Positions 15,662 through 56,301 of a DNA stretch of 64,000 nucleotides are shown piece by piece. Positions within the stretch are counted from its first letter, which is position 1. Every line of letters begins with the position of its first letter. The notes below the pieces were generated by a model. That model was not told where the DNA came from and did not search any database. It saw only the letters and a list, made by a program, of their open reading frames with translations. Position numbers and translations under genes: made by a program. The stretch comes from Gammaproteobacteria bacterium (GTDB lineage: Bacteria > Pseudomonadota > Gammaproteobacteria > UBA12402): NCBI GenBank assembly GCA_050123335.1, contig JASFHH010000005.1:792-64791 (forward strand), read 5' to 3'.

Positions 15662-15667
15662 AGTGTT

Positions 15668-15955: not shown

Positions 15956-15976
15956 TACTTAAGCTCCTTAGTTCTT

Positions 15977-16601: not shown

Positions 16602-16904
16602 TTATATTTTGTTGTTTCCGATAATAGGTTTTTTCTCTTCAACATTTTCATTTTTTTTAGATTCAATTGTAGCATTTTTAGAAAGTTCACGAATAATTTT
16701 AGCATGACATATGCCAGTGCCTACATTTATAGTAAGGCCTGTAAAAAATAAAACAAATCCCCCTATTGCTCGAAGTGCGGCAAGAGCATCTTTGGAGGTC
16801 ATGCCATCTACTGATAAAACTGGGCCTCCAACCATAAGAGTAATTCCTGCCATATATAAAAAACAAGGACCTATAGAACGTTGAAGACATCCAAAGAAAC
16901 TCAT
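16602..16904 (-). CDS. Small membrane protein (100 aa), hypothetical
   Basis: Three predicted TM segments. No family recognised. Confidence 0.35.
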   Translation of the reverse strand: MSFFGCLQRSIGPCFLYMAGITLMVGGPVLSVDGMTSKDALAALRAIGGFVLFFTGLTINVGTGICHAKIIRELSKNATIESKKNENVEEKKPIIGNNKI

Positions 16905-17098: not shown

Positions 17099-17383
17099 TT
17101 ATAAAGAATCTGGTTTTTCCAACGACTTTTCCTTTTCAGTTGCAAGCCGGCGCTCGACTTTTTTAACATCTTCAGCAGCAGGAAGTGTTTCGGGTTGAAT
17201 ACCTCTTTCTAATAAAGTGTTACGAACTGCAGTATTGTTAGTGACGTGTTCTTTGGAAACTTCGGTTTCTGTTTTCATATTATGTTCTTTTTTATCTCGA
17301 ATAAGAGTAAAATTTTTATTTCCTCCAGTTTGCTCATAAATAGAGTTTATGTGCTGCAGCACATAAAATTTACGCGCGTGCAA
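17099..17383 (-). pseudogene. dinD: dinD (DNA-damage-inducible protein D) C-terminal fragment
   Basis: …KEHVTNNTAVRNTLLERGIQPETLPAAEDVKKVERRL… matches the DinD C-terminus. The DNA is ~85% identical to 20676..20880. Confidence 0.55.
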
Positions 17384-17684
17384 ATCTTGAAATGAAGCGA
17401 GCAGCGATTGAAAAGGTCAGCACTGCTCCTACACCAAAAATTTCCGCATGGAAAGAAAATAAATCGCTCTTATAATGGCTGCAATCATTATAAGGAATAA
17501 AACATGCGTTATTTAAATCGAGATCCACCAGCTTATATCCTAAATATCTAGAACTATAAAACTTGCAAAATAGACTTAAAAAGGATACATTATGAAAATA
17601 TTGTTAATCATTTCTCATCAAGAAGAAAAGCGTTTGTTGACATCATTAATATCAACAGGTTAAATCAAAAACAGGAACGAATTT

Positions 17685-18689
17685 GTGATGTGCAAATCGC
17701 TGAAAATTTTTGTGCTAAAATTATCATGCTTAATGGCGTTTTTTTATCTTGCGATTTTTAATAATGCTTTTGCTTCCAACAACCAAATAACAATTATACC
17801 ACGATATAATATGGAAATTTTCAATCAAAAAATAACGAATATTTACACAAATCCAATTGCTCATAGCAAGGATATAAAAAAAAGAATCAAAGCAGACAGT
17901 CAGCATTTTATCTACAAGTCTTATTTGAACGGAGCACTTGGGGAAGGACCAAAAGCATTGTTTGACAAAAGCCCTTTGTATAGAACGGATATGTTTGATT
18001 GTACTACTTTTGCTAGCACTGTTTTGGCTTTGGTAGAATCAAACAATTTAATTGAATTTAAAAAAAATATCTTAAAAGTTAGATACAAAAACAATGCGGC
18101 ATTATTCATTAATCGCAATCATTTCATCAGTGTGGATTGGAATATCAATAATGAAAAGCAAGGTTTTTTAAAAGACATTAACAGTAAAATTCTTGATGAG
18201 AAAGGAAATCCTATAGCTGTAACTGCAAACGCTTTTATAGATAAACCCAATTGGTATAAGCATTTGCGGGCAAGCACCATCAAATCATTTTATGCAATGC
18301 CAAAAGAGAAAGTAAAAATTTTATATAAAGCACTGCATGATTGCAGTTATAAAGTAAAACCACAGGCTAGCAAAATATTGTATTTGCCATTTAGCAAGCT
18401 ATTTACGAATGGTGCACCTAATCAACAACTATTTGATCAAATACCATCAGCAACAGTTATTGAAATTGTCCGACCAAACTGGAATTTAAAAGATATCATC
18501 GGAACCAATATTAATATTTCCCATATGGGGTTTGGTATCCGCATCAAAGGCAAATTGATATTTAGAGAAGCATCCTTTGTGGATAAAAAAGTTGAAGATG
18601 TCGACCTTGAAAAATATTTAGCGCAGTACCTCAACAGCTCAACTATAAAGGGAATTCGTGTTGAAAAAATTGTATTGCAACACCGATAA
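17685..18689 (+). CDS. Secreted hypothetical protein (signal peptide, 334 aa)
   Basis: N-terminal signal sequence MMCKSLKIFVLKLSCLMAFFYLAIFNNAFA. Lies between two dinD fragments and has no confident family assignment. Confidence 0.45.
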   Translation: MMCKSLKIFVLKLSCLMAFFYLAIFNNAFASNNQITIIPRYNMEIFNQKITNIYTNPIAHSKDIKKRIKADSQHFIYKSYLNGALGEGPKALFDKSPLYRTDMFDCTTFASTVLALVESNNLIEFKKNILKVRYKNNAALFINRNHFISVDWNINNEKQGFLKDINSKILDEKGNPIAVTANAFIDKPNWYKHLRASTIKSFYAMPKEKVKILYKALHDCSYKVKPQASKILYLPFSKLFTNGAPNQQLFDQIPSATVIEIVRPNWNLKDIIGTNINISHMGFGIRIKGKLIFREASFVDKKVEDVDLEKYLAQYLNSSTIKGIRVEKIVLQHR

Positions 18690-18789
18690 AAAGTGACACA
18701 TGCAGATATTATACGCAGTAATTTCACCTAAAGTCTGCATGAAATCTGGGCTTCCTTTTTACAGACCATTTTGTTGACGTCAACAAAAT

Positions 18790-18975
18790 GGTCTGTAGTG
18801 TTATGCTTGGAATTTGTACAGGCTGCTTTTGCTTTGGCTATAACATTATGGAAATTTCTCCATTCTTCATAACCTAACAATTGTTGCAGCTCACGTGCTA
18901 GCCAAAATTCTACACCGTCTTCAGTTTTTTGAGCATGTTCTTCAAAGTTATTTGTTAATGTGTAAATAAAAATCG
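18790..18975 (-). pseudogene. dinD: dinD N-terminal fragment (start codon mutated)
   Basis: DNA ~80% identical to 21390..21600, the 5' end of the dinD-like ORF. An upstream palindrome cagaccattttgttgacgtcaacaaaatggtctg parallels ccattttcctgacgtcaggaaaatgg at 21362. Confidence 0.5.
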
Positions 18976-18986
18976 TTTTAATTTTC

Positions 18987-20102
18987 TTAATGCCATCTAT
19001 ATCTAAATTTTAAATTATTGAATTTATTATATCCAATATAATTCATATGCTGAAGCCGTCCCACAAGAATGCCTGGGGCAATATTCAATTTTTTGGCAAA
19101 TTCAATAATCAGGGCGGTACTCAGTTTATCATTTTTCTTTAACCATTCATTTAAGCGTGATGAAGGGATTAAAGTTTCTGCTGCATATTTATCTGCTTCT
19201 AATTCTTCGGAAGATTTATTTACAGTCTTGTTATTTATTTCAACAAAAAATTCTTTTTTGCTGTGTTTAATTATGTGACCTATTTCATGAAAGATTGTGA
19301 ACCATAAAATGTCGGCTGTTTTACCTCTTAAGCTTAATTGAACTAATGCTTTTTCAGGATTCAACCAGCAAGAAGCTCCATAAATAGGAACTTTTGGAAA
19401 AGGCTTTATAAAGACAATGGCGATTCCACAATCAGCACAAATATTCTTTAATTTAGGAACAAATATTTCTGGATCTTTTTCTTTAGTAAGCGCGCGCATT
19501 TGATCGAGTGATGAAATTAATTTTTCTTTATCAAATAGTTTGCATTGAATTTTTTCTCCTTCAAGCTCTCCCTTTCTTAACCAAACGCTAATAGCACCAA
19601 TATCTGATTTTAGATTCATGGCTTTCCTAAATGCAAGCCGTCGCCGTGTCCATCCTTGTTCCCATTGCTCTGGTGTGGCTACTCCAAAAAAATTTAATAT
19701 GGCAATCATTTGCTCCGCAACAGTATCGCCACATTTAAGAAGCCAACCTCTTTTTTTCATTTCTTTGATTGGAAACTGCTTAAGCCAATCTTTTTCTGCA
19801 GTTAAACGTTCTAACTCTTTTTGCTGGGCAAGGTAAGCACGGTAATTGGCTTCTCTTTGATTCCAAAATGCAGCAGGAGTACCAAGTGCTCTTTCCAACT
19901 GAATAGCTGTCTCTGAAGTAATTGCGGCTTTACCTTTGATAATTTCGTTGATAGTTTTTAATGGGCGACCAATACGTTCTGCAAGCGCTACTTGAGTCAT
20001 ACCTCGTTCTTCAAGAATTTCAAGCAATGTTGCTCCAGGGGCAGAAACGATGTCTGGTTGGTAAAAAAGTTTACTTTTTTCAATCATGGGTATCCTCCAC
20101 AT
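18987..20102 (-). CDS. HigA-like XRE-family HTH antitoxin fused to ImmA/IrrE-family zinc metallopeptidase (COG2856)
   Basis: N-terminal HTH (LLEILEERGMTQVALAERIG…) and a C-terminal HEXXH motif (FHEIGHIIKH). Likely start at MIEKSKLF. Confidence 0.7.
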   Translation of the reverse strand: MWRIPMIEKSKLFYQPDIVSAPGATLLEILEERGMTQVALAERIGRPLKTINEIIKGKAAITSETAIQLERALGTPAAFWNQREANYRAYLAQQKELERLTAEKDWLKQFPIKEMKKRGWLLKCGDTVAEQMIAILNFFGVATPEQWEQGWTRRRLAFRKAMNLKSDIGAISVWLRKGELEGEKIQCKLFDKEKLISSLDQMRALTKEKDPEIFVPKLKNICADCGIAIVFIKPFPKVPIYGASCWLNPEKALVQLSLRGKTADILWFTIFHEIGHIIKHSKKEFFVEINNKTVNKSSEELEADKYAAETLIPSSRLNEWLKKNDKLSTALIIEFAKKLNIAPGILVGRLQHMNYIGYNKFNNLKFRYRWH

Positions 20103-20415
20103 TTATTATTTTTATAGCGTTAACTAAATTCCAATTTATTCCACCACCATCTTTTTTATTTATACTCTTATTTGTTGGTTCAAATATCAATCTTAATGGA
20201 TGTTCCAAATCAAGAGAAAGCAACCCTTTTTTATCACCTATTAGTTCGTGGCAACGACCTGGTAATGTCTTAAAAGCTTCTAAATTAGGAGCAGCTTGTA
20301 AATCATCAAGGCGCGCTCTAATCTTTCGGGCACAATTTTTACCATAAGTTTTAAGCAACTTTTTTTCTGAGTTACAGATTTTCTGAAGCTTTTTATTTTT
20401 AAAGGTGATCTCCAT
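20080..20415 (-). CDS. higB: HigB-like toxin (RelE/ParE superfamily, plasmid-maintenance killer type)
   Basis: …ARKIRARLDDLQAAPNLEAFKTLPGRCHELIGDKKGLLSLDLEHPLRLIFE… is the HigB/RelE-like pattern. Sits upstream of and overlapping the HTH gene. Confidence 0.7.
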   Translation of the reverse strand: MEITFKNKKLQKICNSEKKLLKTYGKNCARKIRARLDDLQAAPNLEAFKTLPGRCHELIGDKKGLLSLDLEHPLRLIFEPTNKSINKKDGGGINWNLVNAIKIINVEDTHD

Positions 20416-20548
20416 GTTATAAATGCGTCTACCCTTATTTTTATTAATAATTATTAAAAAGTGTAGTATAGATTTCGTGGCAAGTCAAATTATATTTAAC
20501 CTTTTGGGTTAAATATAATTTAGAAAATTCAACGTTTTGGGAATTATT

Positions 20549-20577
20549 TGGTGGAGGCGGCGGGAATCGAATCTGCG
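20549..20577 (-). other. Partial copy of the tmRNA (ssrA) 3' end: att-site remnant of an integrated element
   Basis: tggtggaggcggcgggaatcgaatctgcg vs the authentic ssrA 3' end at 32061 (tggtggaggcggcgggaatcgaacccgcg). Preceded by ttttgggaattattt, shared with the 21686 copy. Confidence 0.6.
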
Positions 20578-20628
20578 TTATAGCTTATTGATTTTTGAAC
20601 CGTGGAAACAATCATACAATTCAAATTT

Positions 20629-20652
20629 AACCCCATCGAATTCGATGGGGTT
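20629..20652. repeat. GAATTC-centred hairpin, copy 1 of 3 (others at 21807..21830 and 22059..22082)
   Basis: aaccccatcgaattcgatggggtt / aatcccgtcgaattcgacgggatt / aaacccatcgaattcgatgggttt. The stem changes are compensatory. Copies 1 and 3 are preceded by caaatttaa. Confidence 0.5.
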
Positions 20653-20675
20653 AGAATACTACTTTTATTATAAAG

Positions 20676-21582
20676 AATCCGGTTTTTCCAACGATTTTTT
20701 CTTTTCTGTGGCAAGCCGACGTTCAACTTTTTTAACATCTTCAGCAGCAGAGCGTTCTTCAGGACAAATGCCTCTTTCTAATAATGTTTTGCGAACAGCT
20801 GCGTTGTTAGTAATATGTTCTTGCGAGACGGCAGCTTCTGTTTTCATGTTATGTTCTTTTGCATTAAAAATAGTAATTTCTGTAGCAAAATCTTTAGCCT
20901 TTAAAATGATTGTGGGAGCAAAATCAGCTAAAGGGCGATTTTTTGCTGAAGGTCATTCATGACCTTCAGCCCTTACGGGGCGCACTTCGTGCGACAAAAA
21001 TCTGCAGTCCTGCAGATTTTTTGGAACATTCCATTGATCTTTCATTTCTTGAGTTGTTTTTCTAAAAAGTGAAAAATTACCTTTATCTCGAATAAGAGCA
21101 AAATTTTTATTTCCCCCGGTTTGTTCATAAATAGTTTTTGATAATTCTTTTTCGGTAGTAGCTAATTTTTTACGTGCGGAAACACGTTCAATCTCTAAGA
21201 GCTTTTGTTCAATTAATTCTGTTCGGCGGGTTTGTATGGCGAAGTAAGTTTGCGCAAAGGCAATTTCTGATTTCTTTGGATCGCCATTTTGTGCAATTAG
21301 ATAGCAAGCGTAGCGGGTAAGCATGATGTCGTTGACTTCGCGTTGGCTACCAGAACCCAGTTTGACCATTTTCCTGACGTCAGGAAAATGGTCTACGATA
21401 TTGTGTCCAGAAGTTGTACATGATGCTTTTGCTTTGACTATAACATTAAGAAAATTCTCCCATTTTTCATAACCAAGCAATTGTTGCAATTCGCGTGCTA
21501 GCCAAAATTCCACGTCATCTTCAGTTTTTTGAGCATGTTCTTCAAAGTTGTTTGTTAACGCATAAATAAAATCAGTTTTCAT
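20676..21582 (-). pseudogene. dinD: dinD-like gene disrupted by a ~180-bp palindrome-rich insertion (20880..21060)
   Basis: The N-terminal 175 aa match DinD (…WLARELQQLLGYEKWENFLNVIVKAKASCTTSGHNIVDHFPDVRKMVKLGSGSQREVNDIMLTRYACYLIAQNGDPKKSEIAFAQTYFAIQTRR…). The frame then runs into gaaggtcattcatgaccttc / cgcacttcgtgcg / tctgcagtcctgcaga palindromes, and the C-terminal coding segment resumes out of frame. Confidence 0.6.
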
Positions 21583-21685
21583 TGTTAAACCTCTATTTTT
21601 AATTTTTAAAATTATCAAACGGTAGATTATCGCAAATAAAAAAATTAAAAACTAGCGTAAAAACTACGGGGTTTTGGGAATTATT

Positions 21686-21708
21686 TGGGCGGTGGGAATC
21701 GAACCCGC
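21686..21708 (-). other. Second partial tmRNA 3'-end copy (att remnant)
   Basis: gggcggtgggaatcgaacccgcg, preceded by the same ttttgggaattattt as the 20549 copy. Confidence 0.55.
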
Positions 21709-22469
21709 GTTGTAATTTGTTGATTTTGGCGGTACAGCTATTGATACTACTAAAATGAGAAGTCAGATAGTCTGAACTGATCGGGAATTCCGAATAGTTG
21801 AAATCTAATCCCGTCGAATTCGACGGGATTAGAATACCGCGTGGGGACAATTTGTTCCTTGGTAGCTTGATCAATTGTAGACAAATTGTCGACGGTTTGC
21901 ACTGATTAAATTTAAGCCAAACGTTTTGCCGACGTCGTCAAAATGGTATAAATTATTGAGTAGCAGTTATAAAGAAATTCTTTACAACTGATCTCATTCA
22001 TCTGAAGTTGCGAAACAACCTGTTTCGCAATTACGAAAAAATTGTACAGTTCAAATTTAAACCCATCGAATTCGATGGGTTTAAAATCAGTATTATTAAG
22101 TTGGTTCCAAAATACCCAAAAACTTAATCGTATTGCGATTTTGCAACTTGCTAAACTCAGAAAACAGAAGGTGTTTTAAAAAACCGAAAATACTTATTTA
22201 TTGAAAGTGATTATTAATTATTAATAAATTTAGTGAAATAAAGGATTGTATTTTCTAAATATTGAGGTAGAATAATCGGCCACTGGGAGATTTGTTCAAA
22301 ATCTCACCTGCCAAGAATAATAAAATCATAAAATAAGGTTCAGGCATTTCTCTTGAATTGCTGTCAGATATGGATATTCCTTTTGAACATGGAGCGCATT
22401 GGTCGCTTATTTTCTTAATAGAGTTAATTAGTAATCTAAAAAATTTAATAGTTTTAGGAGAAGAAATAT

Positions 22470-23195
22470 ATGTTTATTGTTGATGAAAAGCAAAAAAAAG
22501 AATGGAGAGGTATACAGTGTGTATTAACTTCGCCTATTGCGTTGTCCTATTTAATTTTGATGTTATTCGCGGTTTTTTTGGCAAATTTGTTTAATGATAT
22601 AAGAGTAATTCACTTAATGTGTGTAGCTGCCTGTTCAATTTCCGCTGGGTTTTTTGGTAGTAAATGGCAAGAGATTGTTAAACAAAGCGAAAGTGATGAA
22701 ACTATACTTTCGCGAGGACAAATGGCGATACGACGATTAAATAACTTATTATCAAATCTGAAAACAACTATTGACACAATTGAAAAATTTCTGGAATTTC
22801 AAATTGAAAATAGCGATAAAAACGCTTTAAAAATATGGTTAGAAAGCTTAGTAAGACAAGTAATTATGATACAAAAAGAAGGCGTAAGTGCTATTGAGGA
22901 TTGGGGTGATTTAATGCCAGATTATAATGTTAAAAAACATGTTGATCTTATAGGAGAATTACGTAGTGATGTTTTAAAAATTAAGAAAGAAAAAGAAGAA
23001 ATAGAAAAGAATAAAGTAATTGAGTCAGAAGAAAAAGAAAATAAAATAAAATATTTAACGAAAGAGTTAGAGATAAAAACAGCAGAGTTACAAGAAGAAC
23101 AACAAAAATTTAACGCATCGCTTTTTGGAGGATTAGATTTTGGTACAATTGATAAGAAAAGTTATTCTGAGCTGCTTTTAGATCTTAAACAATGA
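22470..23195 (+). CDS. Membrane-anchored coiled-coil protein (241 aa), first gene of a putative three-gene Abi-like module
   Basis: Two predicted N-terminal TM helices followed by a Glu/Lys-rich coiled coil. Layout is reminiscent of 2TM effector-associated domains. Confidence 0.45.
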   Translation: MFIVDEKQKKEWRGIQCVLTSPIALSYLILMLFAVFLANLFNDIRVIHLMCVAACSISAGFFGSKWQEIVKQSESDETILSRGQMAIRRLNNLLSNLKTTIDTIEKFLEFQIENSDKNALKIWLESLVRQVIMIQKEGVSAIEDWGDLMPDYNVKKHVDLIGELRSDVLKIKKEKEEIEKNKVIESEEKENKIKYLTKELEIKTAELQEEQQKFNASLFGGLDFGTIDKKSYSELLLDLKQ

Positions 23196-23229
23196 GATTT
23201 TTTAAGAAATTTTTAAATGAGAGGAAAAC

Positions 23230-24057
23230 ATGAGCAAATGGGATCAAATTGTTACTAGTGATGTTAATGATAAAACAGAATTAAAAAATTTAGAAAATGA
23301 TTATGCAAGAGGAGAGTTTTTGCAGAATATGTTAATTAGTACGGCTACAGGCGGTCAATCTCAGAGAGATGATCAATACAAAAAGTTAAGAAGATATTTC
23401 ATGGAAAGTGAACATGCCAATTTATTGCCTTTTTGGGTTAAGAGTAATAGAGATCTGGGAAGTTTCTGGCCATTTATACAAGAACAATTTTCAACTTATC
23501 GAGAAAGACGCGCTTTTATAAGAACAGAATTTGATCGTTTATTGAGTGCACTAGAAGCAAATTGTACTTGTCTGATTGTTGAGTCTGTTAATTTAACAAT
23601 GCGGCAGATAACACATGCAAATTTAAATTCATATTGGAATAAGGCTATAAAAAGAGTAGGGACTGATCCAGAAGGAGCTATTACAATAGCTAAAACATTA
23701 TTAGAAGGGAGTTGTAAGGAGATACTAGATCGTCAATGTGTAGAATATGATGATGACAAAATAACATTACCAAAATTATATAAAATAACAGCCAAATCAT
23801 TACAACTACATTCTACGCAACATATTGAAAAAATTTTTAAGAGTATCTTAGGTGGTTGTTCTGCGATAGTTGGAGGACTTGGCAATGTTAGAAATGAGCT
23901 TGGTGATGCACATCATCGTAAAATAAAACCATTACGTAGACATGCTGAATTAGCTGTTAATATGGCGGGGTCGATGGCAAAATTTTTATTTCAAACTTTA
24001 GAAGACAGAATGGAAATTAAAAAAGGAAAAAAACAAAGCAACGATAACATTAATTAA
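23230..24057 (+). CDS. HEPN/Abi_C-domain protein (AbiJ-like abortive-infection family)
   Basis: C-terminal Rx6H HEPN-type motif within GLGNVRNELGDAHHRK. Overall resembles Abi_C (abortive infection C-terminus) proteins. Confidence 0.55.
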   Translation: MSKWDQIVTSDVNDKTELKNLENDYARGEFLQNMLISTATGGQSQRDDQYKKLRRYFMESEHANLLPFWVKSNRDLGSFWPFIQEQFSTYRERRAFIRTEFDRLLSALEANCTCLIVESVNLTMRQITHANLNSYWNKAIKRVGTDPEGAITIAKTLLEGSCKEILDRQCVEYDDDKITLPKLYKITAKSLQLHSTQHIEKIFKSILGGCSAIVGGLGNVRNELGDAHHRKIKPLRRHAELAVNMAGSMAKFLFQTLEDRMEIKKGKKQSNDNIN

Positions 24058-24186
24058 TTTGGAATATACGCTATTTAAATTTATTTTAGTAAAAAAATAT
24101 GTAAATTTTTGGATTGTAAGAAAAAATGATAAATTTAATATAAAGCGTATCTTATTAATATATTAGTTTCAAGTAAAGGTATTTAC

Positions 24187-24816
24187 ATGATTTGGTCAAA
24201 AATTTTAACATTTTCTAATATAACCAGTATTATTGCAGTTATAATTAGTTTTATTTCTATTTTGATTGCTGGTTTTTCTACTTGGTGGCAATTTCTTAGA
24301 AGGCCAAAAATTAAAGGCATTTTTTCTGAGATTGCATTTGAAAGGCAGGGTGGTGGATATAAACCAACGAAGTTGAGTAATATTGTCGAACCATTCTTTA
24401 TATTAAAAAACATAGGAGCAAGATCAGCAATAGTTGAAAATATAAGATTAAAATTTTTTTTTGATGGAGAATCTTTTTACGCATATCCTTATTTAAAACC
24501 AGCAGAATCGATAGTTACTTGGGATGATCAAAAAGTAAAAAGACATTTTGTTGGTTTAATTTTGCCGTTTAACGAATCTTGGAAATGTGATTTAAAATTC
24601 AAATTAACAAATAAAAAGGATTTTTCTAATATAGGTAATCTTACAGGAACAGTTTTGTTGGAACTAAAATTTATTAAAAAAGGTTGGGTTATGGTAGATA
24701 CAAATACTTCCAATTTTTCATTTACTCGTGAGGAGATACAGATAGATGAGTCTTGGAAAAGGAAATCTGATTTTTATTCAAAAAAAATTTTTAAAAATTT
24801 TAGATCAAATTCATAA
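24187..24816 (+). CDS. Hypothetical protein with N-terminal TM anchor (209 aa), third gene of the module
   Basis: Hydrophobic N-terminus ITSIIAVIISFISILIAGFSTWW. Co-directional with the two preceding genes with short gaps. Confidence 0.4.
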   Translation: MIWSKILTFSNITSIIAVIISFISILIAGFSTWWQFLRRPKIKGIFSEIAFERQGGGYKPTKLSNIVEPFFILKNIGARSAIVENIRLKFFFDGESFYAYPYLKPAESIVTWDDQKVKRHFVGLILPFNESWKCDLKFKLTNKKDFSNIGNLTGTVLLELKFIKKGWVMVDTNTSNFSFTREEIQIDESWKRKSDFYSKKIFKNFRSNS

Positions 24817-25124
24817 CAAAGCAAATATTGGCAACATATCATTGGTTGATCTGATATATATGGTTGGAGCAGATATTCTTTAGAGCGCAATATAAAGCAA
24901 GATTTGTTTGTTGTACAGTTTGTACCTCAAAATAAAGTATATAATTGCTAAGATGATATTTGCTATGGATGAATGCTATTAATGTTGTTAATATCTGGCA
25001 GAGAAAGATCAGAACTAGTATTTTAAAATCGTCGCTATCAATCTATAATTAGGTTTGGAATTCATAACTTAGTTAAGCGATATTGCTGTAAAATGTTGCC
25101 ACAAACACCTTCATTAGAGTATAA

Positions 25125-25364
25125 AGTGGTCAACCCACGTATTATTCGTCAAACACCGCAACTCATTTGTTGCGCGCAGACGTTGATGTCAATACAATTA
25201 GAGCTTGGTTTGGTCATGTCTCAATTAATACAACCAATATTTATGCTGAGGTTGATATTGAGATGAAGGCTAAAGCGTTGGCATTATGTGAGATAGTAGA
25301 AATTAAACAAAAACTAAATTGTAATTATAATAAAAGTTTAAAGGGTTTTTTAGATGCCTTTTAA
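25125..25364 (+). pseudogene. int: Tyrosine recombinase/integrase C-terminal fragment
   Basis: …TATHLLRADVDVNTIRAWFGHVSINTTNIYAEVD… is the catalytic tail of phage-type integrases (H-x-x-R…Y region). An upstream in-frame stop leaves only ~80 codons. Confidence 0.65.
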
Positions 25365-25392
25365 TGTTCAATTATATAAATGAGAGTAAATA

Positions 25393-26309
25393 ATGATTAA
25401 AAATGTTCGCAAAAAAAACATCATTACTTAGCAAGAGTATACCTAAATGGTTTTTGTGATCAGAATAATATGGTTTGGTCATATCATAAAGATGATCTTT
25501 CAAAAATACATTGTCAAACACCAGACAATACAGCAATTGAAAAAAATCTTTATGCTGTGGATGGAATTGATGTTAATGTGTTTGAAGACTTTTTATCTGA
25601 CCAAATAGAAAGTCCAGCAGTAAATGCATTAAAGGAATTACAAAAAGGTCAACTGCCATCAAATAATGATAGACTTGTTTTAGCAAAATTTTTTGGCTTC
25701 ATGTTAGTACGAACTCCGTCATATAAGGCTTCTAATGAACAGCCATTTGAGCGTGAATCTAATATGTTACTAAAATTATACGTACAACATAAAGAGTGTT
25801 TTCAAAATTGGTGTAATAAATATGAAGGAATCAATAATCAACCTATAGCTAAAGATATTGAGCGACTAAGGCAAGAAATCTTAAATGGAAAATACATACT
25901 AAAACCACATCATAATTTTAGTCTTAATACTATAGGAAAATTGGGTTTAAGCATTGATTCTTATTTATTAAATATGAAATGGATAATGATAAAAGCACCC
26001 AAAGGTTATTTCTTTTTAACTTCTGACAATCCTGTTATTATCACAAATCCAGAGTGCAATGGATTTTATTCAACAGGATTAGGACAAGAAAACACTAGAG
26101 TTTTTATCCCAATTTCAAAGGAAATTGGTCTTCTTATGGTTAATTTAGATATTGATGGTTTTGACAATCAATCAATTGATAATAATAGTGAGATTGTAGG
26201 GCATATGAATAAAGCAATCATTCTGTTTGCATCCAAATTTATATTTAGTCATAAAAAAAACGACGACATTACACAATTAATAAAAAAAGTAACTGAAAAT
26301 AAAAATTGA
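25393..26309 (+). pseudogene. DUF4238-family protein, frameshifted in an A8 homopolymer near the 5' end
   Basis: ATG at 25393 (MIKNVRKK…) hits a stop after 12 codons. One extra or missing A in aaaaaaaa (25411-25418) restores …KKHHYLARVYLNGF…, the DUF4238 N-terminal HHY-x-x-x-YL motif. The downstream body contains the DUF4238 hallmark TSDNPV. Confidence 0.6.
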
Positions 26310-26479
26310 AATTATGTGTTGTAGACAGGGCAAAGTCGTTTTTCATCCTGTGTATGCGATTTTAAAAGCGCATTTACTTTTTTACATGTTTATAAAAGAT
26401 ATTAGTGTGACCTATACAGTTTAATTGAGCGGCGACTACTTAACGTTTGGCTTAGTGTTGCATGGATAAAGGCTTTTGG

Positions 26480-26940
26480 TTATTTACTTTAATTAGTTGC
26501 CCCCCAGACTGCCCCCCCCCTGAAATTGGCTTTGTTTTGCAAAAAACAAAGGTAGTTTATTCTATTTGCATTTTTCTTATCAATCTGAGATACTAAAAAC
26601 GTGCTAGTAACACACATGCAAAGCGGTAAAACTGCGTCCGATAACCGCGGTTTTTTTGTACCTAAATGTCGGGCGTTCGTTGGAATACAATACCCTTGGG
26701 AAATACAGCGAGCCACGCTTTGCAGTGGTTACTAACGCCTGACACCAATTAAATTTGGGATTATTAGTAAAATTGCAAAGGAGTAAAATCATGTCACATA
26801 TTTCAAAAAAATTATCTTTATTTATCAATAAGTTAATTGATGCAGAATAGTAAAAGTCTTACACAACAATCAGATGTTTTTCGGTGGTTAAAACATGCTC
26901 AATCATCCATAATTACTATGCGCAAGCTTTCTGAGGAGGA
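26480..26940 (+). other. Structured non-coding leader with poly-C tracts, long-range inverted repeats and a 19-codon ORF with strong SD
   Basis: gttgccccccagactgccccccccc (C6 and C9 tracts). The 22-nt arm gtgctagtaacacacatgcaaagcgg (26601-26626) is complementary to ccacgctttgcagtggttactaac (26712-26735). Hairpin ctttgttttgcaaaaaacaaag. aaggag-N7-ATG at 26791 gives MSHISKKLSLFINKLIDAE*. Locally GC-richer than its surroundings. Confidence 0.3.
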
Positions 26941-26942
26941 AA

Positions 26943-28289
26943 TTGATGACTGCGAAAATACATCAACCAGCGTGTGAATTGACTGAAGGCTGTTGGGTTG
27001 ATTTTAGAGAAATGGTGCAACAAGTTGAACCGGAATTGTTTGACATCATTGAGAAAATAAACCCAAATAAAGAGCACAAATTAATTAAAGCCAGATATTT
27101 ATATGGCGAGCAAATTACTGATCTTGGTACCATTTGTGTTCCAGATAAATTTGGCCGTTTAGTACGTTTAGATAACGCTAATGTCTCCAGTGAGTTGCAA
27201 GATCAATTGGGCTATTGTCCTACGCCGCTAGTTTTGCAATTAAAAAATGCTGGTGAGGTTTTTGTTGAAACAGAAGATCGCATCGCGCCATTAAATATTT
27301 TTATGCCGGGGGATATGTACGGGTTATATGAAATTTTAGTTCCGCTTTCTGGTTGTCCAGCCGTACCTTGTTGGAGTATTACATCCGGAGGCAGATCGGT
27401 ATTTTTAGCATCTAAAATTACCGATGCAATCGGTCACAAAAAATTGCGTAAGGAATTTGGTGTATCACCAGTTCCACCGAAAAACATCAAAGATCAATGG
27501 GCAACTATGAAAACTATTGCTAACCGAGGCAGAAAAGATAATCCTTGGTCATCAGAAATATTAATTTTTACCAAAGAATGGTTTACCGAAAAAGATGACG
27601 ATATTAATTGGATGAGATTTCAAAACTACTTGATGAAAAAAGCGTGGTGGCAATCTCGAAGTACTCGCGCACAAATTGAATATAGTATTATGTGGGAATC
27701 TTTTGCTAAAGCAGTGTGTGCTAGAAATTTAAAACCTAGTTCTTATATTGTTGATACAGTAAAACATTTAATGCTATTAACTGCTGGCACAACTCCCGGA
27801 TTTAAAGCGATTGATACCAGTGAAAACATCATGCCGTCAAAGATTGTAGAAAAAGCATATACGGACATTTACGGTTTAAAAGATTATGCGGCCATTATTA
27901 TGCATCCTCACGTAACTAAATTAAATAGTCATGATGAGCAAGTTTATTACTCGATGGCCTATCCTACTTTAATTTCCGGCACGCCGTCTATTCGTAAAAA
28001 CACAAACACCATGACTGAAATTCGTGACGTGCAGACATTGATGAAAATGCTTGAAAAAATATTATCTTCTTATGAAGATCGTGTTCATAATTCAATGAAA
28101 AACGTTAAGTTTGAATATTTTCATAGTGATGAAGATCGTTTTGGGGAAATCCTAAATAGCCATAGCATAACTAAAACTGATGCGGCAATCTTAAATATTT
28201 TAAACGAACGTTTTCCTGGTAAAAAATTTCCTTCATACGGTTCATTTTTCAGAGGGTGCATTAGAATAAGCAGGAAGAATGTTGGTTAA
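26943..28289 (+). CDS. Hypothetical protein (448 aa), convergent partner of the rSAM-Nudix gene
   Basis: Long ORF with no recognisable motifs. Its 3' end overlaps the 3' end of the opposite-strand rSAM-Nudix gene by 48 nt. Confidence 0.5.
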   Translation: MMTAKIHQPACELTEGCWVDFREMVQQVEPELFDIIEKINPNKEHKLIKARYLYGEQITDLGTICVPDKFGRLVRLDNANVSSELQDQLGYCPTPLVLQLKNAGEVFVETEDRIAPLNIFMPGDMYGLYEILVPLSGCPAVPCWSITSGGRSVFLASKITDAIGHKKLRKEFGVSPVPPKNIKDQWATMKTIANRGRKDNPWSSEILIFTKEWFTEKDDDINWMRFQNYLMKKAWWQSRSTRAQIEYSIMWESFAKAVCARNLKPSSYIVDTVKHLMLLTAGTTPGFKAIDTSENIMPSKIVEKAYTDIYGLKDYAAIIMHPHVTKLNSHDEQVYYSMAYPTLISGTPSIRKNTNTMTEIRDVQTLMKMLEKILSSYEDRVHNSMKNVKFEYFHSDEDRFGEILNSHSITKTDAAILNILNERFPGKKFPSYGSFFRGCIRISRKNVG

Positions 28290-29978
28290 AAACATTTTTT
28301 TAGTTGTAGGAAATAATTGTAACGTTAACAAATTCTCTGGCGAAAAATATTTGTATTCTGCAATTTCTCGCTTGTCAATTTTGTATTTGTTTTTACAGCC
28401 ATTGTTTTCTGCAATCCACCAATGCAACTCATCTACATCGTAATCAGCATTAGATGTGCCTATTTTTTTGATGGGAATTACCGCTAAACCAAGCTCCTCA
28501 TGAGCTTCTCTGATAACTGCTGCTTCCTCTGTTTCACCTTGCTCAATTTTGCCATGAATGGGTGCCCAATGATCTTTGTATGGCTTTTTATTTTGTTTTA
28601 CCAACAGATATTTTCCGTTTTGTATAATAACTATAACTACACCCGAACGTTTTTTATCGGATACACTTGCCACATTAACTATGTCACCTTGCATATAACG
28701 TTCATATTGTTTTTTAGTTAGTGGAATTTGCATAATTTTGTTAGCATTCATACAAGCTTTATCATTGGATTTTTCATTGGTTAAATAGACATGCGCTTTA
28801 GTAAAATTAAAATTGGCGTTTTGCTTTAGTAAAGCTACGATGTTTGCAAAACTAATGTTATTTTCCTTATCGATGCAAAATTGACAGTTTTTTGGAATGT
28901 TTTTTTGAAAATCTTGGATGTGGCTATTATTTTTCAATAAAGTTGCTATAGATTGAGTTTTATCATTTATTGTGCCTATTTTAGCTTTTGGCATTATACC
29001 ATTGCGAGCTAGGCAACATAATTGTAATGATAAATCGGCTAATATGATAAATCTTAATCGTGATATCCAGCAGAAATTAAAATCATCTTTTGGTTTGAAA
29101 GATATTCCATATTGTTTTTCAATAATAAAATCTCTTTTATCTTTGATGTTTTGTTTGAATATATTTATTTGATTTTCAACAAATGGAATGATTTCAGGGT
29201 GATCATCGTAAACTTTTCTACAAATATTTTTTCTAATAGCAATCCAGTTAGCCCCCACATCATACATATCACACATAAATTTACTGATGTTGCGATAATT
29301 TTCCGGAAGCATAATAAAGGTAGCACCAATAAATAATTCTTGTTCTCTATTAAATTTAATAGCCTCAACATGAACCGTTTTTATTTTCTTAATCAAGTTT
29401 TCGTAATTATGTGCCTTATCATTTGATTTATGAACTTGATATCTGGAATTATTATCAAAAGAATCAACACTAATTCGTAAATGATGAACGTAGTTAGCAA
29501 TAGTTTTAATAATATTGCCTTGTAATAAATCACCATTCGTTTCGACAGTAATTTTTAATTTTAAATCGGCTAAATATTTTATAATTTCGATAATTTTAGG
29601 ATGATTTAGAGGATCACCACCACCAGTTAATCTAACACTTTTTCCACCTAAATTTTTGAAATCATCAAAGATAGATTTAAGTTGGTCTAATGGCAATGTT
29701 GAATTTAACTTGGAATTTAATTTCTTTGAAAAACACATGATGCAATTATTTGAACAGTTACTAGTAACATCAATATCTAATCTTATAGGCGATAAAGTTT
29801 GATTAAAATATGCGCTTTTTATCGCTTTTATCCACTCATCTAATTGCTCAGGAAACATCTTAGCGTGATTTTGGTAAAAAACATATGTCTTAGCATTACA
29901 TATAGCGCATATTGCATTCCATTTGCCGTATTGTCGATTAACAAGAATATTTTCGTGGTAATTGAAAACCATCTTCAT
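28242..29978 (-). CDS. Radical SAM (SPASM/twitch-like) enzyme fused to a C-terminal Nudix hydrolase domain
   Basis: CX3CX2C motif (CSNNCIMC) with a downstream GGGDPL SAM-binding motif. Additional Cys-rich region (CWISRL…LCCLARN…CQFC). Nudix box GKIEQGETEEAAVIREAHEELGL at aa ~470-495. An N-terminal CxxC pair is also present. Confidence 0.75.
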   Translation of the reverse strand: MKMVFNYHENILVNRQYGKWNAICAICNAKTYVFYQNHAKMFPEQLDEWIKAIKSAYFNQTLSPIRLDIDVTSNCSNNCIMCFSKKLNSKLNSTLPLDQLKSIFDDFKNLGGKSVRLTGGGDPLNHPKIIEIIKYLADLKLKITVETNGDLLQGNIIKTIANYVHHLRISVDSFDNNSRYQVHKSNDKAHNYENLIKKIKTVHVEAIKFNREQELFIGATFIMLPENYRNISKFMCDMYDVGANWIAIRKNICRKVYDDHPEIIPFVENQINIFKQNIKDKRDFIIEKQYGISFKPKDDFNFCWISRLRFIILADLSLQLCCLARNGIMPKAKIGTINDKTQSIATLLKNNSHIQDFQKNIPKNCQFCIDKENNISFANIVALLKQNANFNFTKAHVYLTNEKSNDKACMNANKIMQIPLTKKQYERYMQGDIVNVASVSDKKRSGVVIVIIQNGKYLLVKQNKKPYKDHWAPIHGKIEQGETEEAAVIREAHEELGLAVIPIKKIGTSNADYDVDELHWWIAENNGCKNKYKIDKREIAEYKYFSPENLLTLQLFPTTKKMFLTNILPAYSNAPSEK

Positions 29979-30239
29979 TACCTTTATTTTTCAATGCCTT
30001 ATAGCGATGTTACTGGCAGTTTCTTGTTTTTTGAGTAAATCCAAGCCAAATGTAACATTTTTGTGTTGAAATTTCGATAACAAAAATAGCGTTTGAATTT
30101 AGATTATCAATCTTATTTTGAAGAAGCTATCATTAAGTTGAGTAATTAATATGCAGGAGTATTTTTAACCGATTCATCTGAAAAAAATAATAGCAAAAAC
30201 CACATTCAGGAAGAATCTTAATTTACAAGGAGAAATGTT

Positions 30240-30728
30240 ATGTTAAATCAACGAACGGATGGTTTTTGGATTGGGAGTGATTCGATGGTTTTTGGCAATA
30301 ACAATCGCAAGATTTATAAAGACACAGAAAAATTTAAAATTTTGTTAATCGAAGATGATGAACTTATTAGCAAAATCAATTTAACTTTTTTAAAACAACT
30401 TGGTTATGACGTGGATGTTGCGCGGAATGGTTGTCAAGCTATTAAGTTTTTAAAAAACGATTACGATTTATTTTTACTTGATGTGGGCTTACCTGATATC
30501 TATGGGGTGAGAGTGTGCGAAATAATAAGAACTATACCAAAATTTTTGCACACCCCCGTGATTTTTCTAACAGCCTTTGGGGAGGGGCTTAAAGCAGAGT
30601 GTAAAGCTGCAGGTGGTAATGATTTTGCGATGAAGCCATTACCAATGGAAGAATTAAAAAATTTGGTTGATAAATGGCTGCTTGATAATAACAACAATTC
30701 GGAAGCAAAATATGGATGCAAGGCTTGA
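30240..30728 (+). CDS. Stand-alone response-regulator receiver (CheY-like) domain protein
   Basis: …KILLIEDDELI…DLFLLDVGLPDIYG…VIFLTAFGE…KAAGGNDFAMKP… carries the receiver-domain Asp and Lys signature. The start may be the M at 30286. Confidence 0.6.
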   Translation: MLNQRTDGFWIGSDSMVFGNNNRKIYKDTEKFKILLIEDDELISKINLTFLKQLGYDVDVARNGCQAIKFLKNDYDLFLLDVGLPDIYGVRVCEIIRTIPKFLHTPVIFLTAFGEGLKAECKAAGGNDFAMKPLPMEELKNLVDKWLLDNNNNSEAKYGCKA

Positions 30729-31070
30729 GTTACAGGATATTATTGATGAACATTTAACAAAAACACACGCTATATTGAATTGCTTATTAGCAGCATGGAG
30801 CAGCGACCATCATGTTGACCAGGATACTATTTTTCACGCGCTTTGGTCGATGGAAGATCATTTATTGGAAATTAAGAAATATCGGGATGCATCGTCTAAA
30901 AGGGGAAGGCAGCATTAATTCTTTTGTTGCATTTCAACTGTACGAAAACATCGTGCAGTTGAAATCGCGTAAATTTAAGTAAGCATTTTGTTAGCATCAA
31001 CAAAATAGTGGGGTTTTGATTAATAAGCTTTCTAAACGGTGTAGATGATGAAATGGCAAGTTTATAATCA

Positions 31071-31946
31071 CTAATTTCCGAGAAATGCATTGTGAACTTG
31101 TGTATTAATTTTTTTACATTCTTTTAGCCTGGATTGATAAAAAGGTGAGTTTTTAATTTCATTAGCTAGCTCATATTTATTAATTTGTTTCCAAGAGAAA
31201 TTAATTTTTGCAATTATCTTTGGTGTAAAGCTTAACATGATTACAAGACTGGTAATTCCAACTAATGTCGTTCTTTTTATGACAATAGCAAGAGCCTTAA
31301 CAAGTTTGGTATATATTTTTTCTATTTTATTAATTAAGTAACGAGGCTTCAGTTTATGATGCTTAGCAAGTTTGTAAATAGGATTTATATAAAACCACCA
31401 GTTGGCAAAGATAGTAATTAAGAAAAAGCTGCTTAATAGAATCCATATCAGAATGTTGTGAGGGTGTAATGTAATGGTGCCAACTTCTAGAAAGTTAGCA
31501 TAGAGCAAGTCTGCGATAATAAAGCATGGAAACGCAAGAGCGGCATATAGTTTAACTGCATAAAAAAAACTGCTTAAAATCAAGTGTTTTATAACAGATG
31601 GTTTATGTTGATAGTAGATATAAAACGATAAGGTTATTAATAGAGAAAAAGCCAAACCAAACAATAAATTATCAAATAGAATAGATACACCAATCCTCGT
31701 TACACTAATAAGTTCATGGAGGTTTATGTGTAGTGAAAAGAAGATTAGATTATTAATCAAGAATAGTATTACATTGCCAACGATAAGAGCTGCTAACAAT
31801 ATTCGTACAGACTCTTTAACTTCTTGTTGTAGATTCGATTGATGATGAATGCAAGGGTGGGTATAAAAATTCAATAATAAAGAGATATATTTTGCGGGAT
31901 CACTGAAGAAGATCTCATTTATAATATTTATGATTTTATTGCTCAT
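31071..31946 (-). CDS. Polytopic membrane protein (291 aa), hypothetical
   Basis: At least six hydrophobic segments. Adjacent to the ssrA 3' end. Confidence 0.4.
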   Translation of the reverse strand: MSNKIINIINEIFFSDPAKYISLLLNFYTHPCIHHQSNLQQEVKESVRILLAALIVGNVILFLINNLIFFSLHINLHELISVTRIGVSILFDNLLFGLAFSLLITLSFYIYYQHKPSVIKHLILSSFFYAVKLYAALAFPCFIIADLLYANFLEVGTITLHPHNILIWILLSSFFLITIFANWWFYINPIYKLAKHHKLKPRYLINKIEKIYTKLVKALAIVIKRTTLVGITSLVIMLSFTPKIIAKINFSWKQINKYELANEIKNSPFYQSRLKECKKINTQVHNAFLGN

Positions 31947-32060
31947 AAAAATTGCTCCAAGTTGGAAATTAGTAGAGAAGATTATTAGCTGCGTAAAATT
32001 ATAAGAAGTTGATCTTTTAATGCAAGCTGTTTAATTATAGATTGTTATGGAAAGGCAGTT

Positions 32061-32417
32061 TGGTGGAGGCGGCGGGAATCGAACCCGCGTCCGCGAACTC
32101 TCCGCCATCGGTTCTACATGCGTAGCTAATCATTAAATTTCATTATTTGCTGCCCGATTAGCAGGGATCACAAATAACTAGCCTAAGTTAAATTTAGCGG
32201 TATTGCCTTAGGCGCACTTTACCGCGAGCTTATGAAATATGACCATCAGATTCAAGCGCATAAGCACACTTGGGTGATGGGCTGTGCCTGTTTAAGCGGC
32301 GACAGCGTAAAGTTCGTCGTTTGCGACTACTTTGTTGCAGCATGATTTACGAGGTTAAGCTACGTCCTCGGCATGCCCCTTTGGTTTTGCAATCCACGTC
32401 GAAGCCGGGTCGCCCCC
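32061..32417 (-). ncRNA. ssrA: tmRNA (ssrA)
   Basis: The 5' end GGGGGCGACCCGGCTTCGACGTGGATTGC… pairs with the 3' end …GCGGGTTCGATTCCCGCCGCCTCCACCA. Internal tag reading frame GCAAACGACGAACTTTACGCTGTCGCCGCTTAA gives ANDELYAVAA*. Confidence 0.85.
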
Positions 32418-47010: not shown

Positions 47011-47088
47011 GAATCGAATTTATTTTTGTAAAAATCGCTTGACGCAAAGGCTGCTAATCGGTTTAATGCGTGATAGTTTTTGTTTTAT

Positions 47089-47161
<73 letters not shown>

Positions 47162-47969
47162 TATTATTTTTCAAGGTCTATACCCGGATCATGGGTTACG
47201 TTTTATACCGAAGACATAGGTAATACTCTTGGACCAAAAGCCTAATAGTGTAACCTATGTCTCCGGCATATTCTGTTATCTATGTGTCAGGTAGCGCACA
47301 AGGCTTTAAGCGATTTTTCAGTTTTCCAAATTTAGTGTTGTGTGTAATTCTGGTGTAATTGTGCAGAAAAAATTGTGATTTTTATTAGTTGATTTTATTA
47401 TTCGTTGGAAGCGTATAGTTTTTCTAATATATCCATTGCTGACTGAATATGCTCACCGTTTTGATGATTGTAGTGATTATGTAAAGCTTTACATAATCAC
47501 TATTTGTTATGACTATCTGCTTAATTATATTAATACTTATCTTATAATCTGCTTTATTCTACATACTTTAAAAGAACGTAAAAATAAGCTTAAAATGCAA
47601 GCTGATATAAATTTACTGCAGCAAAAAATTAAGGAAATCAATATTGCAAAAGAGTTTGCTGATGCTAAAAAAAGAACAGTTGAAAATAAAATAGATGTTT
47701 TAGAAAAACAGATTGCTAAGTTAAAGCAACAATTAAAAAATTGCGCGGTCTTTATTTCGTAAAATAAAGGTGGTGAGAACAATCCGAACCATGATTTTTT
47801 TCATTTTTGAGATTTATTGTGGGAATTTCTTACGTTATCATCGAATGGAAATAATAAAGTTGATCCTAAAGTTTTAACTCTATCAAAACTGGTAGATTCA
47901 ATCACGTTTCGTAAAATGATGTACAAAACTATAACTAATAGTTAAAACTAGTATCGATGAGAAAAATTA

Positions 47970-56172: not shown

Positions 56173-56301
56173 TTTTTTAAGTTTTTTTGTTTTTGTTAAT
56201 AAAACCTTAAGAATTAGTTGGTATTATCAACGCAAGAAACCAATAGCAGTTTGTTTATCATAATTGCTATTTTAAAAACTATAATTAACAGGAACTTTAA
56301 A

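Follow-up and report, generated by a model that had tools for sequence, protein, structure and literature searches.

Displaced tmRNA gene ends mark a decayed, probably serially integrated array in a gammaproteobacterial genome

In the gammaproteobacterial contig JASFHH010000005.1, the 3′ end of the transfer-messenger RNA (tmRNA) gene, ssrA, is followed by an array of displaced ssrA fragments, dinD genes and accessory cargo, which is the subject of this analysis. The window, by which we mean the whole stretch of DNA analyzed, comprises 64,000 nt of this contig. Its ssrA gene is intact. ARAGORN and Rfam agree on it, the Rfam model being matched over its full length (219 bits, model positions 1–374), and the gene ends in CCA; its end lies at 32061, as had been proposed in a first-pass annotation made from the sequence alone. 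Between ssrA and a bacterial microcompartment (BMC) locus lie a cargo-bearing segment A, an inner scar (att2), a short unit with a dinD gene (segment B), an outer scar (att3) and a second, split dinD gene (Table 1).

Table 1 Features of the ssrA region in the window. aa, amino acids; ORF, open reading frame; rSAM, radical SAM; HTH, helix-turn-helix
Feature	Position	Strand	Basis and remarks
tmRNA gene (ssrA), intact	32061..32417	−	ARAGORN and Rfam RF00023; tag ANDELYAVAA
Segment A, composite cargo blocks between ssrA and inner scar	21711..32060		10,350 nt; GC 0.29–0.30 at 22–27 kb
Multi-pass membrane protein, 291 aa	31071..31946	−	No family match
83-aa ORF, paired with receiver	30667..30918	+	
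Orphan receiver domain, 162 aa	30240..30728	+	Pfam Response_reg, 74.5 bits
Fused rSAM + Nudix protein, 578 aa, single ORF	28242..29978	−	Pfam; rSAM residues ~60–400, Nudix 443–561
448-aa protein, convergent to rSAM-Nudix gene	26943..28289	+	N-terminal cyclic-nucleotide-binding-like fold; no Pfam family
DUF4238 gene	25394..26309	+	Main ORF 25470..26309; Pfam DUF4238, 104.5 bits (cutoff 27); PADLOC DUF4238-Pers
Tyrosine-recombinase C-terminal relic, ~80 aa	25125..25364	+	Pfam Phage_integrase, E 5e-4; one frameshift; catalytic H/R positions mutated
Three co-oriented genes (241, 275 and 209 aa)	22470..24816	+	
AbiJ-like protein, 275 aa, Abi_C/HEPN C-terminus	23230..24057	+	Pfam Abi_C, 62.3 bits (cutoff 24)
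Unit-fragment field	21711..22085	−	P arm 21711–21727; H2 21804–21833; dinD 3′ relic 21947–21976; orphan H3 22056–22085
Inner scar att2	21639..21710	−	Core 21686–21710 without TCCACC; flank 21639–21685 runs into dinD(ii)
Segment B, 1.1-kb att-bounded unit	20579..21685	−	Flank, dinD(ii), H1, P arm
dinD(ii), nearly complete	20668..21582	−	NCBIfam DinD
69-nt double-hairpin insertion in dinD(ii) plus second target-duplication copy	20946..21023		Insertion 20946–21014; second copy 21015–23; first copy 20937–45
H1 palindrome, terminator-like, behind dinD(ii)	20628–20653	−	Scores as terminator
P arm of segment B	20579–20596	−	
Outer scar att3	20534..20578	−	Core 20549–20578 (28/30, CCA end kept), then 16 nt conserved flank
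HigB-like toxin	20080..20415	−	Below Pfam cutoff (21.5 vs 27); no PADLOC match
HigA-HTH/M78 peptidase fusion	18987..20102	−	TIGR02607, 51.4 bits (cutoff 47.7); PADLOC PD-Lambda-2_B, 1.3e-38
dinD(i), split	17099..19014	−	N-terminal part 18764–19014, C-terminal part 17099–17348; ~1.4 kb between
AmiA-like gene inside split dinD(i)	17685..18689	+	
Small membrane ORF	16602..16904	−	
hicB homologue	7969..8511		Beyond kdsB and BMC locus from ssrA

The two scars are partial copies of the ssrA 3′ end, both oriented as ssrA itself. Relative to the final 30 nt of the gene (32061–32090), which form the recombination core (an attL-type site), the copy starting at 20549 is identical at 28 of 30 positions and the copy starting at 21686 at 22 of 23 positions of the T-arm part, its TCCACC end being deleted; both copies had been predicted at these places. 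A 23-nt core with up to three mismatches occurs three times in the window against 0.00 expected from shuffles, and the flank TTTTGGGAATTATTTGG, which adjoins both partial copies, occurs exactly twice, at 20535 and 21672 (0.07 expected). Two more displaced copies, att′ and att″, were found on contig L094 from a related species. In all four, identity with ssrA begins at one and the same nucleotide (ACGCGGG, on the 5′ side of the T stem), and the gene-body side is occupied by a common non-ssrA sequence, the P arm, with the consensus CAAAA(A)TCAAnAAnnTAyAA. What lies beside this arm varies: a dinD tail and hairpin are found in the window, and L094 has either a Fic gene or a dinD relic. Beside each scar in the window, the conserved arm extends over 18–35 nt, and beyond it lie a perfect palindrome with GAATTC at its centre and dinD, as a gene or as a relic.

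On the other side of the core, more than 50 nt of flank toward dinD are common to att2, att″ and the authentic ssrA of L094, and att3 retains 16 nt. The att2 flank is 84.6% identical over 78 nt to the sequence 3′ of the authentic L094 ssrA, with flank identities of 84.6–91% overall for att2 and att3. The first-pass annotation had seen the same sequence before both copies and called it non-ssrA sequence. The sharing is real, but TTTTGGGAATTATTT is no filler specific to the islands, since it directly follows the authentic ssrA in L094. In three cases (ssrA in the window, ssrA on the same-species contig L001, and att′), unrelated sequence starts right after the core. An nhmmer profile of arm, core and flank recovered only att2, att3 and ssrA across the window and no fourth scar; hence, a candidate fourth scar near 17030 (TCTGCGTTAT) was rejected. 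In three of the four displaced fragments (21686–21710 in the window; 3057–3078 and 4415–4435 in L094), 4–6 nt of the 6-nt TCCACC stretch that adjoins the flank, most or all of it, are deleted. The element family may have had such an attP from the start, or the fragments may share one deletion.

Core, flank, dinD, hairpin and arm make up a repeat unit that is arranged head to tail with a period of 1,137 nt. Three perfect palindromes of 26–30 nt (H1, H2 and H3) are centred on GAATTC, and no other is present in the window; they differ at several positions, yet each is perfectly self-complementary. Together with the dinD copies and relics, the smallest being the 30-nt 3′ relic at 21947–21976, they match the hairpins and dinD-like fragments that had been noticed beside the copies. 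dinD(ii) scores 260.6 bits against the NCBIfam model DinD NF008573 (cutoff 242), and its reading frame is broken by a 78-nt insertion, in which 69 nt of double hairpin are flanked by a 9-bp target duplication (GATTTTTTG). Removal of the 78 nt restores a DinD of 278 aa, the length found in relatives; dinD(ii) was intact until this recent insertion. The 69-nt sequence is single-copy in the window and not present in the dinD gene of L094. The ends of two independent assemblies fall within it, which points to a repeat present more than once in the genome, probably a multi-copy miniature element. Since the dinD copies are only 80–85% identical to one another and to the L094 dinD, they are not recent duplicates; judged by this divergence, they may be old or may have been acquired separately.

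Comparators were obtained by a search for SmpB homologues followed by contig look-ups. The closest, L001, belongs to the same species and is 99.7% identical to the window over thiL-smpB-ssrA, but diverges exactly after CCACCAAA, the CCA end of ssrA. After 57 nt, a homologue of the 83-aa ORF follows with 88.6% identity (receiver-block region, L001 1883–2098), and the 291-aa gene is absent. Such a fall in identity, from 99.7% to 88.6%, where ssrA ends indicates horizontally replaced DNA. In a relative with 95% SmpB identity (P0001 contig), which was compared by its gene map, the same BMC locus adjoins an intact 278-aa dinD, and the 8.4 kb from this gene to ssrA hold a different gene set. This set consists of three unknown genes, a 68-aa ORF with a receiver, two CsrA genes, a second receiver, an HTH/S24 repressor, Vut_1 and cpYpsA, and the gene map shows no integrase in it.

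The contig L094 is 86–88% identical to the window in smpB-ssrA and has the arm/core/flank structure at three places with different cargo between them, namely a Fic gene and an insertion sequence (IS). Its authentic ssrA is directly followed by AAATAATTTCACAAAAC-TACGTAGTTTTTACGCTAGTTT, which in the window flanks att2 and att3. Behind it lie a dinD N-terminal relic, P arm and core (3057–3078), the Fic gene, and a second P arm and core with a long flank (4391–4495; 87.5% identical to window positions 21727–21626). Beyond an IS lies an intact dinD with 87% protein identity to the repaired dinD(ii), and the last block, 81.8% identical to window positions 30962–27895, contains the 68-aa ORF and receiver (6653–7331) and the rSAM-Nudix and 448-aa genes (7603–9684). 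The first element after ssrA in L094 is, therefore, a decayed unit of the segment B design. Gene content at the ssrA end varies among these relatives (L001, the P0001 contig and L094), and an identical gene order, expected of an ancestral region, was not seen. In the relatives with 82% SmpB identity, ssrA is not adjacent to smpB. A scan of GTDB genomes with SmpB gave a best identity of 73% without synteny beyond smpB, and these genomes could not serve as an empty-site test. The pair of receiver and 68–83-aa ORF is kept close to ssrA in four genomes (window, L001, P0001 contig and L094) despite differing surroundings. In the 95% relative, two CsrA paralogues and a second receiver follow it, which suggests a regulatory module of an integrative element.

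Repeats with a common arm and flank, a polymorphism whose onset coincides exactly with the end of ssrA, the recurrence of the architecture in a second species, broken genes, and the different gene set of the 95% relative all support the tandem integration at ssrA that the first-pass annotation had inferred. We therefore consider it likely that the array arose by serial site-specific integration at the ssrA 3′ end and has since decayed, with cargo of the conflict type. The ssrA 3′ end would have acted as an integration hotspot, at which integrative elements with one attP recombined several times. This attP would consist of the conserved P arm (CAAAATCAAnAAnnTAcAA) and the core, i.e. the final ~24–30 nt of ssrA from the 5′ side of the T stem. 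Recombination between the attP of an element (P arm-core-P′) and the ssrA 3′ end, presumably by a tyrosine integrase, would rebuild a working ssrA from element-borne sequence, and each event would displace the previous 3′ end outward, along with its flank (AAATAATTCCCAAAAC...) and the dinD gene behind it. Read outward from ssrA, the events would have left the 10.35-kb composite island, att2, the 1.1-kb unit, att3, the oldest flank with its dinD, and the BMC locus. Within the composite island, the order is membrane gene, receiver block, rSAM-Nudix/448-aa genes, DUF4238 gene, RitC-type recombinase relic, AbiJ-like module and dinD relic. The dinD-bearing units may have arrived as att-bounded circles, having been taken along by elements that used alternative att sites in excision, and the responsible integrase would have been lost since.

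Several observations weigh against serial integration or complicate it. The middle of the array (21005–30240, ~9 kb) rests on one long contig and on protein-level records. Composition deviates at 22–27 kb and 29–32 kb (GC 0.29–0.31), but the part of segment A at 25–29 kb is core-genome-like. None of the ORFs of at least 120 aa in the 64 kb encodes an integrase domain, and the sole recombinase relic belongs to another type of element. Scans of viral contigs for an intact or excised member of the presumed element family, with core plus flank and with arm plus core, gave 0 matches in all three. The receiver/rSAM block is proximal to the scars in the window and distal in L094, which means that the history was not that of a simple stack. 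Finally, in two more distant contigs (L088 and L091, ~77.5% nucleotide identity), ssrA abuts a hicB homologue that is 23.5 kb away from ssrA in the window. No scar is seen at the junction, and larger rearrangements or older events, possibly an older insertion, have therefore also had a part in shaping the region. The hicAB region occupies 7724–8530 in the window, 5366–5857 in L088 and 2067–2427 in L091. We rejected the hicB junction (8511–8530) as an outer att site, as no ssrA-like sequence is present there.

The scar-bounded unit also admits a different reading, in which the 1.1-kb dinD units are integrase-less cassettes resembling cis-mobilizable elements (CIMEs) that an integrase encoded elsewhere still excises and re-inserts at ssrA, forming an integron-like array. 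Segment B (20579–21685) does lie exactly between two att sites, P arm and core being present in each, and contains one gene and its terminator; a decayed unit of the same design is the first after ssrA in L094, and dinD(ii) lost its frame only through the recent 69-nt insertion. Cis-mobilizable elements and accretion have, moreover, been described for ssrA islands (PMC3146451). Nevertheless, we judge ongoing mobility of such cassettes unlikely: the cores carry mutations (one has two mismatches, the other has lost 6 nt), the copies of the unit, at 80–85% identity, are old, and no circular junction, empty-site variant or candidate integrase was seen in the searches made.

An ancient local tandem duplication, by unequal crossing-over or slippage, of the ssrA tail, flank, dinD and terminator, followed by divergence and unrelated insertions and deletions, would likewise give a head-to-tail unit with a period of 1,137 nt and would require no integrase, in line with the absence of one. 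The first unit in L094 begins at the authentic ssrA, and the divergence between copies (80–85% identity) is similar to that between species, so that one old, shared duplication could account for both. However, the junctions lie at the canonical T-stem boundary of a tRNA or tmRNA gene (tDNA), which a random breakpoint would rarely hit. Unrelated cargo follows exactly after the core in three cases, the P arm is kept although what lies beside it varies (in the window dinD/hairpin; in L094 Fic or a dinD relic), and the drop in identity from 99.7% to 88.6% in L001 could not arise without horizontal exchange. On this evidence, duplication is a quite improbable origin of the array.

An assembly artefact, in which a chimeric contig or collapsed and expanded repeats join scars and dinD copies that are not contiguous in the real genome, is very improbable: the window does stem from a metagenome-assembled genome, two strains coexist in one sample, and other assemblies of the same strain break at 21003–21005, 18918 and 16922, but the independent Logan assembly L082 matches 18918–21005 at 100% across att3 (20549–20578 and both flanks), contigs from another sample at the JGI show the same gene order on both sides (smpB, 291-aa, 68-aa and receiver genes; dinD tail, higB, higA, AmiA and BMC genes), L094 from an unrelated ENA sample has the same architecture, and the ~19% difference between the dinD copies is larger than repeat collapse would allow. 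The L082 match shows that the outer copy and its flanks are not the product of a single assembly, which contradicts for this copy the one artefact that the first-pass annotation had named as a possible refutation.

The integrase that would have acted in the serial integration left no recognizable gene. The recombinase relic at 25125, which had been noted as the C-terminal remnant of an integrase, is indeed derived from a tyrosine recombinase. By tblastn it is 54–63% identical (E 2e-20) to plasmid-borne recombinases, and we inspected the genomic contexts of two of these homologues. On an Escherichia coli IncF plasmid, three tyrosine-recombinase genes overlap one after another in the recombinase-in-trio arrangement, and the homologue is the third; on a plasmid of Candidatus Megaera it is the last in an IS-disrupted run of recombinase genes. 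Based on these contexts and the tblastn matches, the relic is of the RitC type and was rejected as the island's own integrase. It is, therefore, debris of another kind of element and no evidence on the enzyme that acted at ssrA. The relic resembles recombinase-in-trio (RIT) elements in its homology to the C-terminus of the third gene, but comprises only the last ~80 codons with a frameshift; three adjacent tyrosine-recombinase genes are not present, nor are element ends.

With its integrase gone, its scars altered by point changes or a 6-nt deletion and several of its cargo genes disrupted, the array can probably no longer move by itself. The first-pass annotation had likewise found no intact integrase and called the island fixed. 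The former agrees with our ORF survey; the latter is plausible, but not proven, because the 1.1-kb att-bounded unit could be moved by an integrase encoded elsewhere. In searches of contigs, we found neither a circle junction nor an empty-site variant. The exact ssrA pattern gave 0 matches in a collection of metagenome contigs that does not include the source samples, and a relaxed pattern retrieved L091 alone.

Elements integrated in tmRNA genes include CP4-57 at the ssrA gene of E. coli and integrative and conjugative elements of Legionella. As defined by Islander, an island regenerates its target gene, leaves the displaced 3′ fragment at its far end and must contain an integrase gene; no target is more enriched than the tmRNA gene, and some islands stand in tandem arrays (PMC4383910). 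At our locus, the tmRNA gene is intact and apparently regenerated, displaced fragments lie in the same orientation, and close relatives vary from the end of the tDNA onward. The scars are, in contrast to those of Islander-type islands, degraded, and the interval holds the 80-aa RitC-type relic alone. The array would thus fail the Islander filter, because an integrase gene is required per island. The ssrA islands of Dehalococcoides are arranged in tandem with a 20 bp repeat, encode a serine recombinase (DsiB) in most cases and carry reductive dehalogenases, and some of their att-flanked segments lack integration genes and were interpreted as cis-mobilizable or fixed (PMC3146451). Like these, our array has direct repeats downstream of an intact ssrA that delimit adjacent islands in a hypervariable region, with a conserved non-ssrA motif beside each repeat. 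Unlike them, it has a repeat of 24–30 nt from the T stem, no surviving integrase and cargo of the toxin-antitoxin (TA), Abi and dinD type. As expected under accretion, att2 and att3 delimit adjacent segments with a common P arm and flank, and the same holds in L094. In accretion at elements of the ICESt1/ICESt3 type, a CIME is an att-flanked segment without recombination or transfer genes that stands in tandem with larger elements at one site. Segment B is similar as an integrase-less att-flanked segment in tandem and differs as a single-gene (dinD) unit that recurs in two species and whose mobilization is putative.

Integration at tmRNA genes is a well-known process, and the locus leaves the current understanding of island biology unchanged. 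It would, however, provide a well-delimited example of a tmRNA gene that collected and then fossilized mobile DNA, with a dinD unit that travels with an attachment site in two species, and the exact arm, core and flank sequences can be used to seek the missing integrase and intact elements.

The cargo appears to be of the conflict type, judged from family matches to an AbiJ-like HEPN protein, DUF4238, a HigBA/M78 module and DinD (a PADLOC candidate, PDC-S13); two of these genes are broken. Typical of islands are the TA genes, the AbiJ-like and DUF4238 genes, the RitC relic, and the rSAM-Nudix/448-aa cassette, which is known also from a relaxase-bearing element. Next to ssrA, the membrane protein and the orphan receiver domain were confirmed as first described. 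The AbiJ-like protein matches phrog_23253 (3.5e-62) and PADLOC AbiJ (E 1.3e-13), the latter alignment being restricted to residues 146–255; among phages, just four weak partial homologues were found, which are uninformative. No family match was obtained for the flanking 241-aa and 209-aa genes. The three-gene HEPN/Abi_C module proposed earlier hence holds as a set of co-oriented genes, but with a family match for its middle gene alone. The DUF4238 gene is frameshifted, as previously noted and as supported by Pfam and frame analysis. Its ATG at 25394 is out of frame through a run of eight A (25411–25418), where nine would restore the frame, and the frameshift could be a sequencing error.

The most novel item of the locus, and its best-conserved cargo, is the rSAM-Nudix/448-aa cassette. 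The rSAM and Nudix parts, which had been read as a pair of genes, are a single fused ORF, and the conserved partner is the convergent 448-aa protein, of which the ~290 residues beyond the cyclic-nucleotide-binding (CNB)-like domain gave no match. The rSAM protein belongs to a rare family, of which 14 cluster representatives were found among 1.84 billion at E < 1e-30. Fusion to Nudix occurs in three proteins, and elsewhere there are separate genes for a 442-aa rSAM and a 132-aa Nudix protein. A convergent partner of 442–448 aa is present in every readable neighbourhood, namely the window, L094 (83% identical) and L095–L099 (63% identical), and contigs of the same size in both homologue lists (3643, 3704, 4058, 5251, 6453, 17945 and 69765) indicate at least seven co-occurrences. 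In L095–L099, the trio of rSAM, Nudix and partner genes (L095 1032–4119) stands beside CsrA, a sigma-70 factor and a MobA/TraI relaxase. For the wider family, a universal partnership was rejected, as homologues with 32% and 50% identity lie beside a methyltransferase, or an MFS (major facilitator superfamily) transporter and a dehydrogenase.

The AlphaFold2 model of the rSAM protein (mean pLDDT 77) is closest in fold to DesII (E 2e-14), followed by SkfB/SuiB, viperin and BlsE, and the protein has five extra conserved Cys. A prokaryotic viperin (pVip) was rejected based on 58.2 bits against the NCBIfam model viperin_w_prok (cutoff 180) and on the fold comparison, in which DesII ranked best and viperin 11th or lower. 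Compared with the nucleotide-linked rSAM enzymes DesII, viperin and BlsE, all NCBIfam scores are far under their cutoffs (viperin 58 vs 180; MoaA 62 vs 284). The extra conserved Cys and the ~290 unmatched residues of the partner further set the pair apart from these enzymes and from CNB effectors such as PycTIR, and so do the distant partner homologues, which adjoin other enzymes instead of rSAM genes. No described family or system matches the pair. Because of the low family scores, the extra Cys and the distant partners without rSAM genes, a nucleotide-linked function can be proposed only as a hypothesis. Tentatively, and with odds that we consider low, the pair might be an undescribed system borne by mobile elements in Gammaproteobacteria of the intracellular type, in which the rSAM/Nudix protein makes or destroys a modified nucleotide or nucleotide-sugar that the partner senses. 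If so, it would represent a new nucleotide-based conflict or signalling module. In any case, an uncharacterized three-domain cassette (rSAM, Nudix and CNB-like) is common to an ssrA island and a relaxase-bearing element.

Beyond the outer scar, the region from 16.5 to 20.5 kb contains the dinD fragments and the HigB/HigA-M78 genes that had been listed for it. That they form older layers of the island is not borne out by the profile search, which detected no further att site. The higBA genes are inserted between the att3 flank and the start of dinD(i). As a PD-Lambda-2/HigBA module they are incomplete, with a match for the B-like HTH/M78 protein and no PADLOC match for the adjacent HigB-like gene. 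dinD(i) stands where the 95% relative has its intact, BMC-adjoining dinD, and this is why we read 17–20.5 kb as displaced original flank. It may thus be the original flank, or else the oldest layer, into which higBA and the AmiA-like gene inserted later.

The BMC locus itself (9365–16440, minus strand) encodes a class II aldolase, a DeoC-type aldolase, three EutN/CcmL proteins, BMC-H, CsoS1D-like shell proteins, a PduS/RnfC-like protein and an aldehyde dehydrogenase, and we take it to resemble the sugar-phosphate-utilization type. It is unusual for a genome that otherwise resembles an intracellular organism of the Coxiellaceae/Legionellales type. The host is an uncultivated, probably intracellular gammaproteobacterium, with a 1361-aa ankyrin-repeat protein and its nearest named SmpB from Coxiellaceae. 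The ankyrin-repeat gene (56218..60303) lies in ~13 kb of strongly deviant, low-GC DNA (0.27–0.30) that follows a tRNA-Phe gene (47088..47162) and extends to 60300, together with an MFS transporter, a sulfotransferase and a DDE transposase (55315..56151). Neither a direct repeat of the tRNA-Phe gene nor an integrase was found for this region, which is possibly a second, scar-less island. An AAA_14/DUF4143 ATPase gene at 1794..2960 (PADLOC candidate PDC-S01, E 1e-52) has homologues between smpB and ssrA in L094 (825–2189) and next to rlmB in the 95% relative, and looks like a wandering single-gene element. On the minus strand, thiM-thiE-thiD are preceded by an ordinary thiamine pyrophosphate riboswitch (62585–62682, 67.6 bits).

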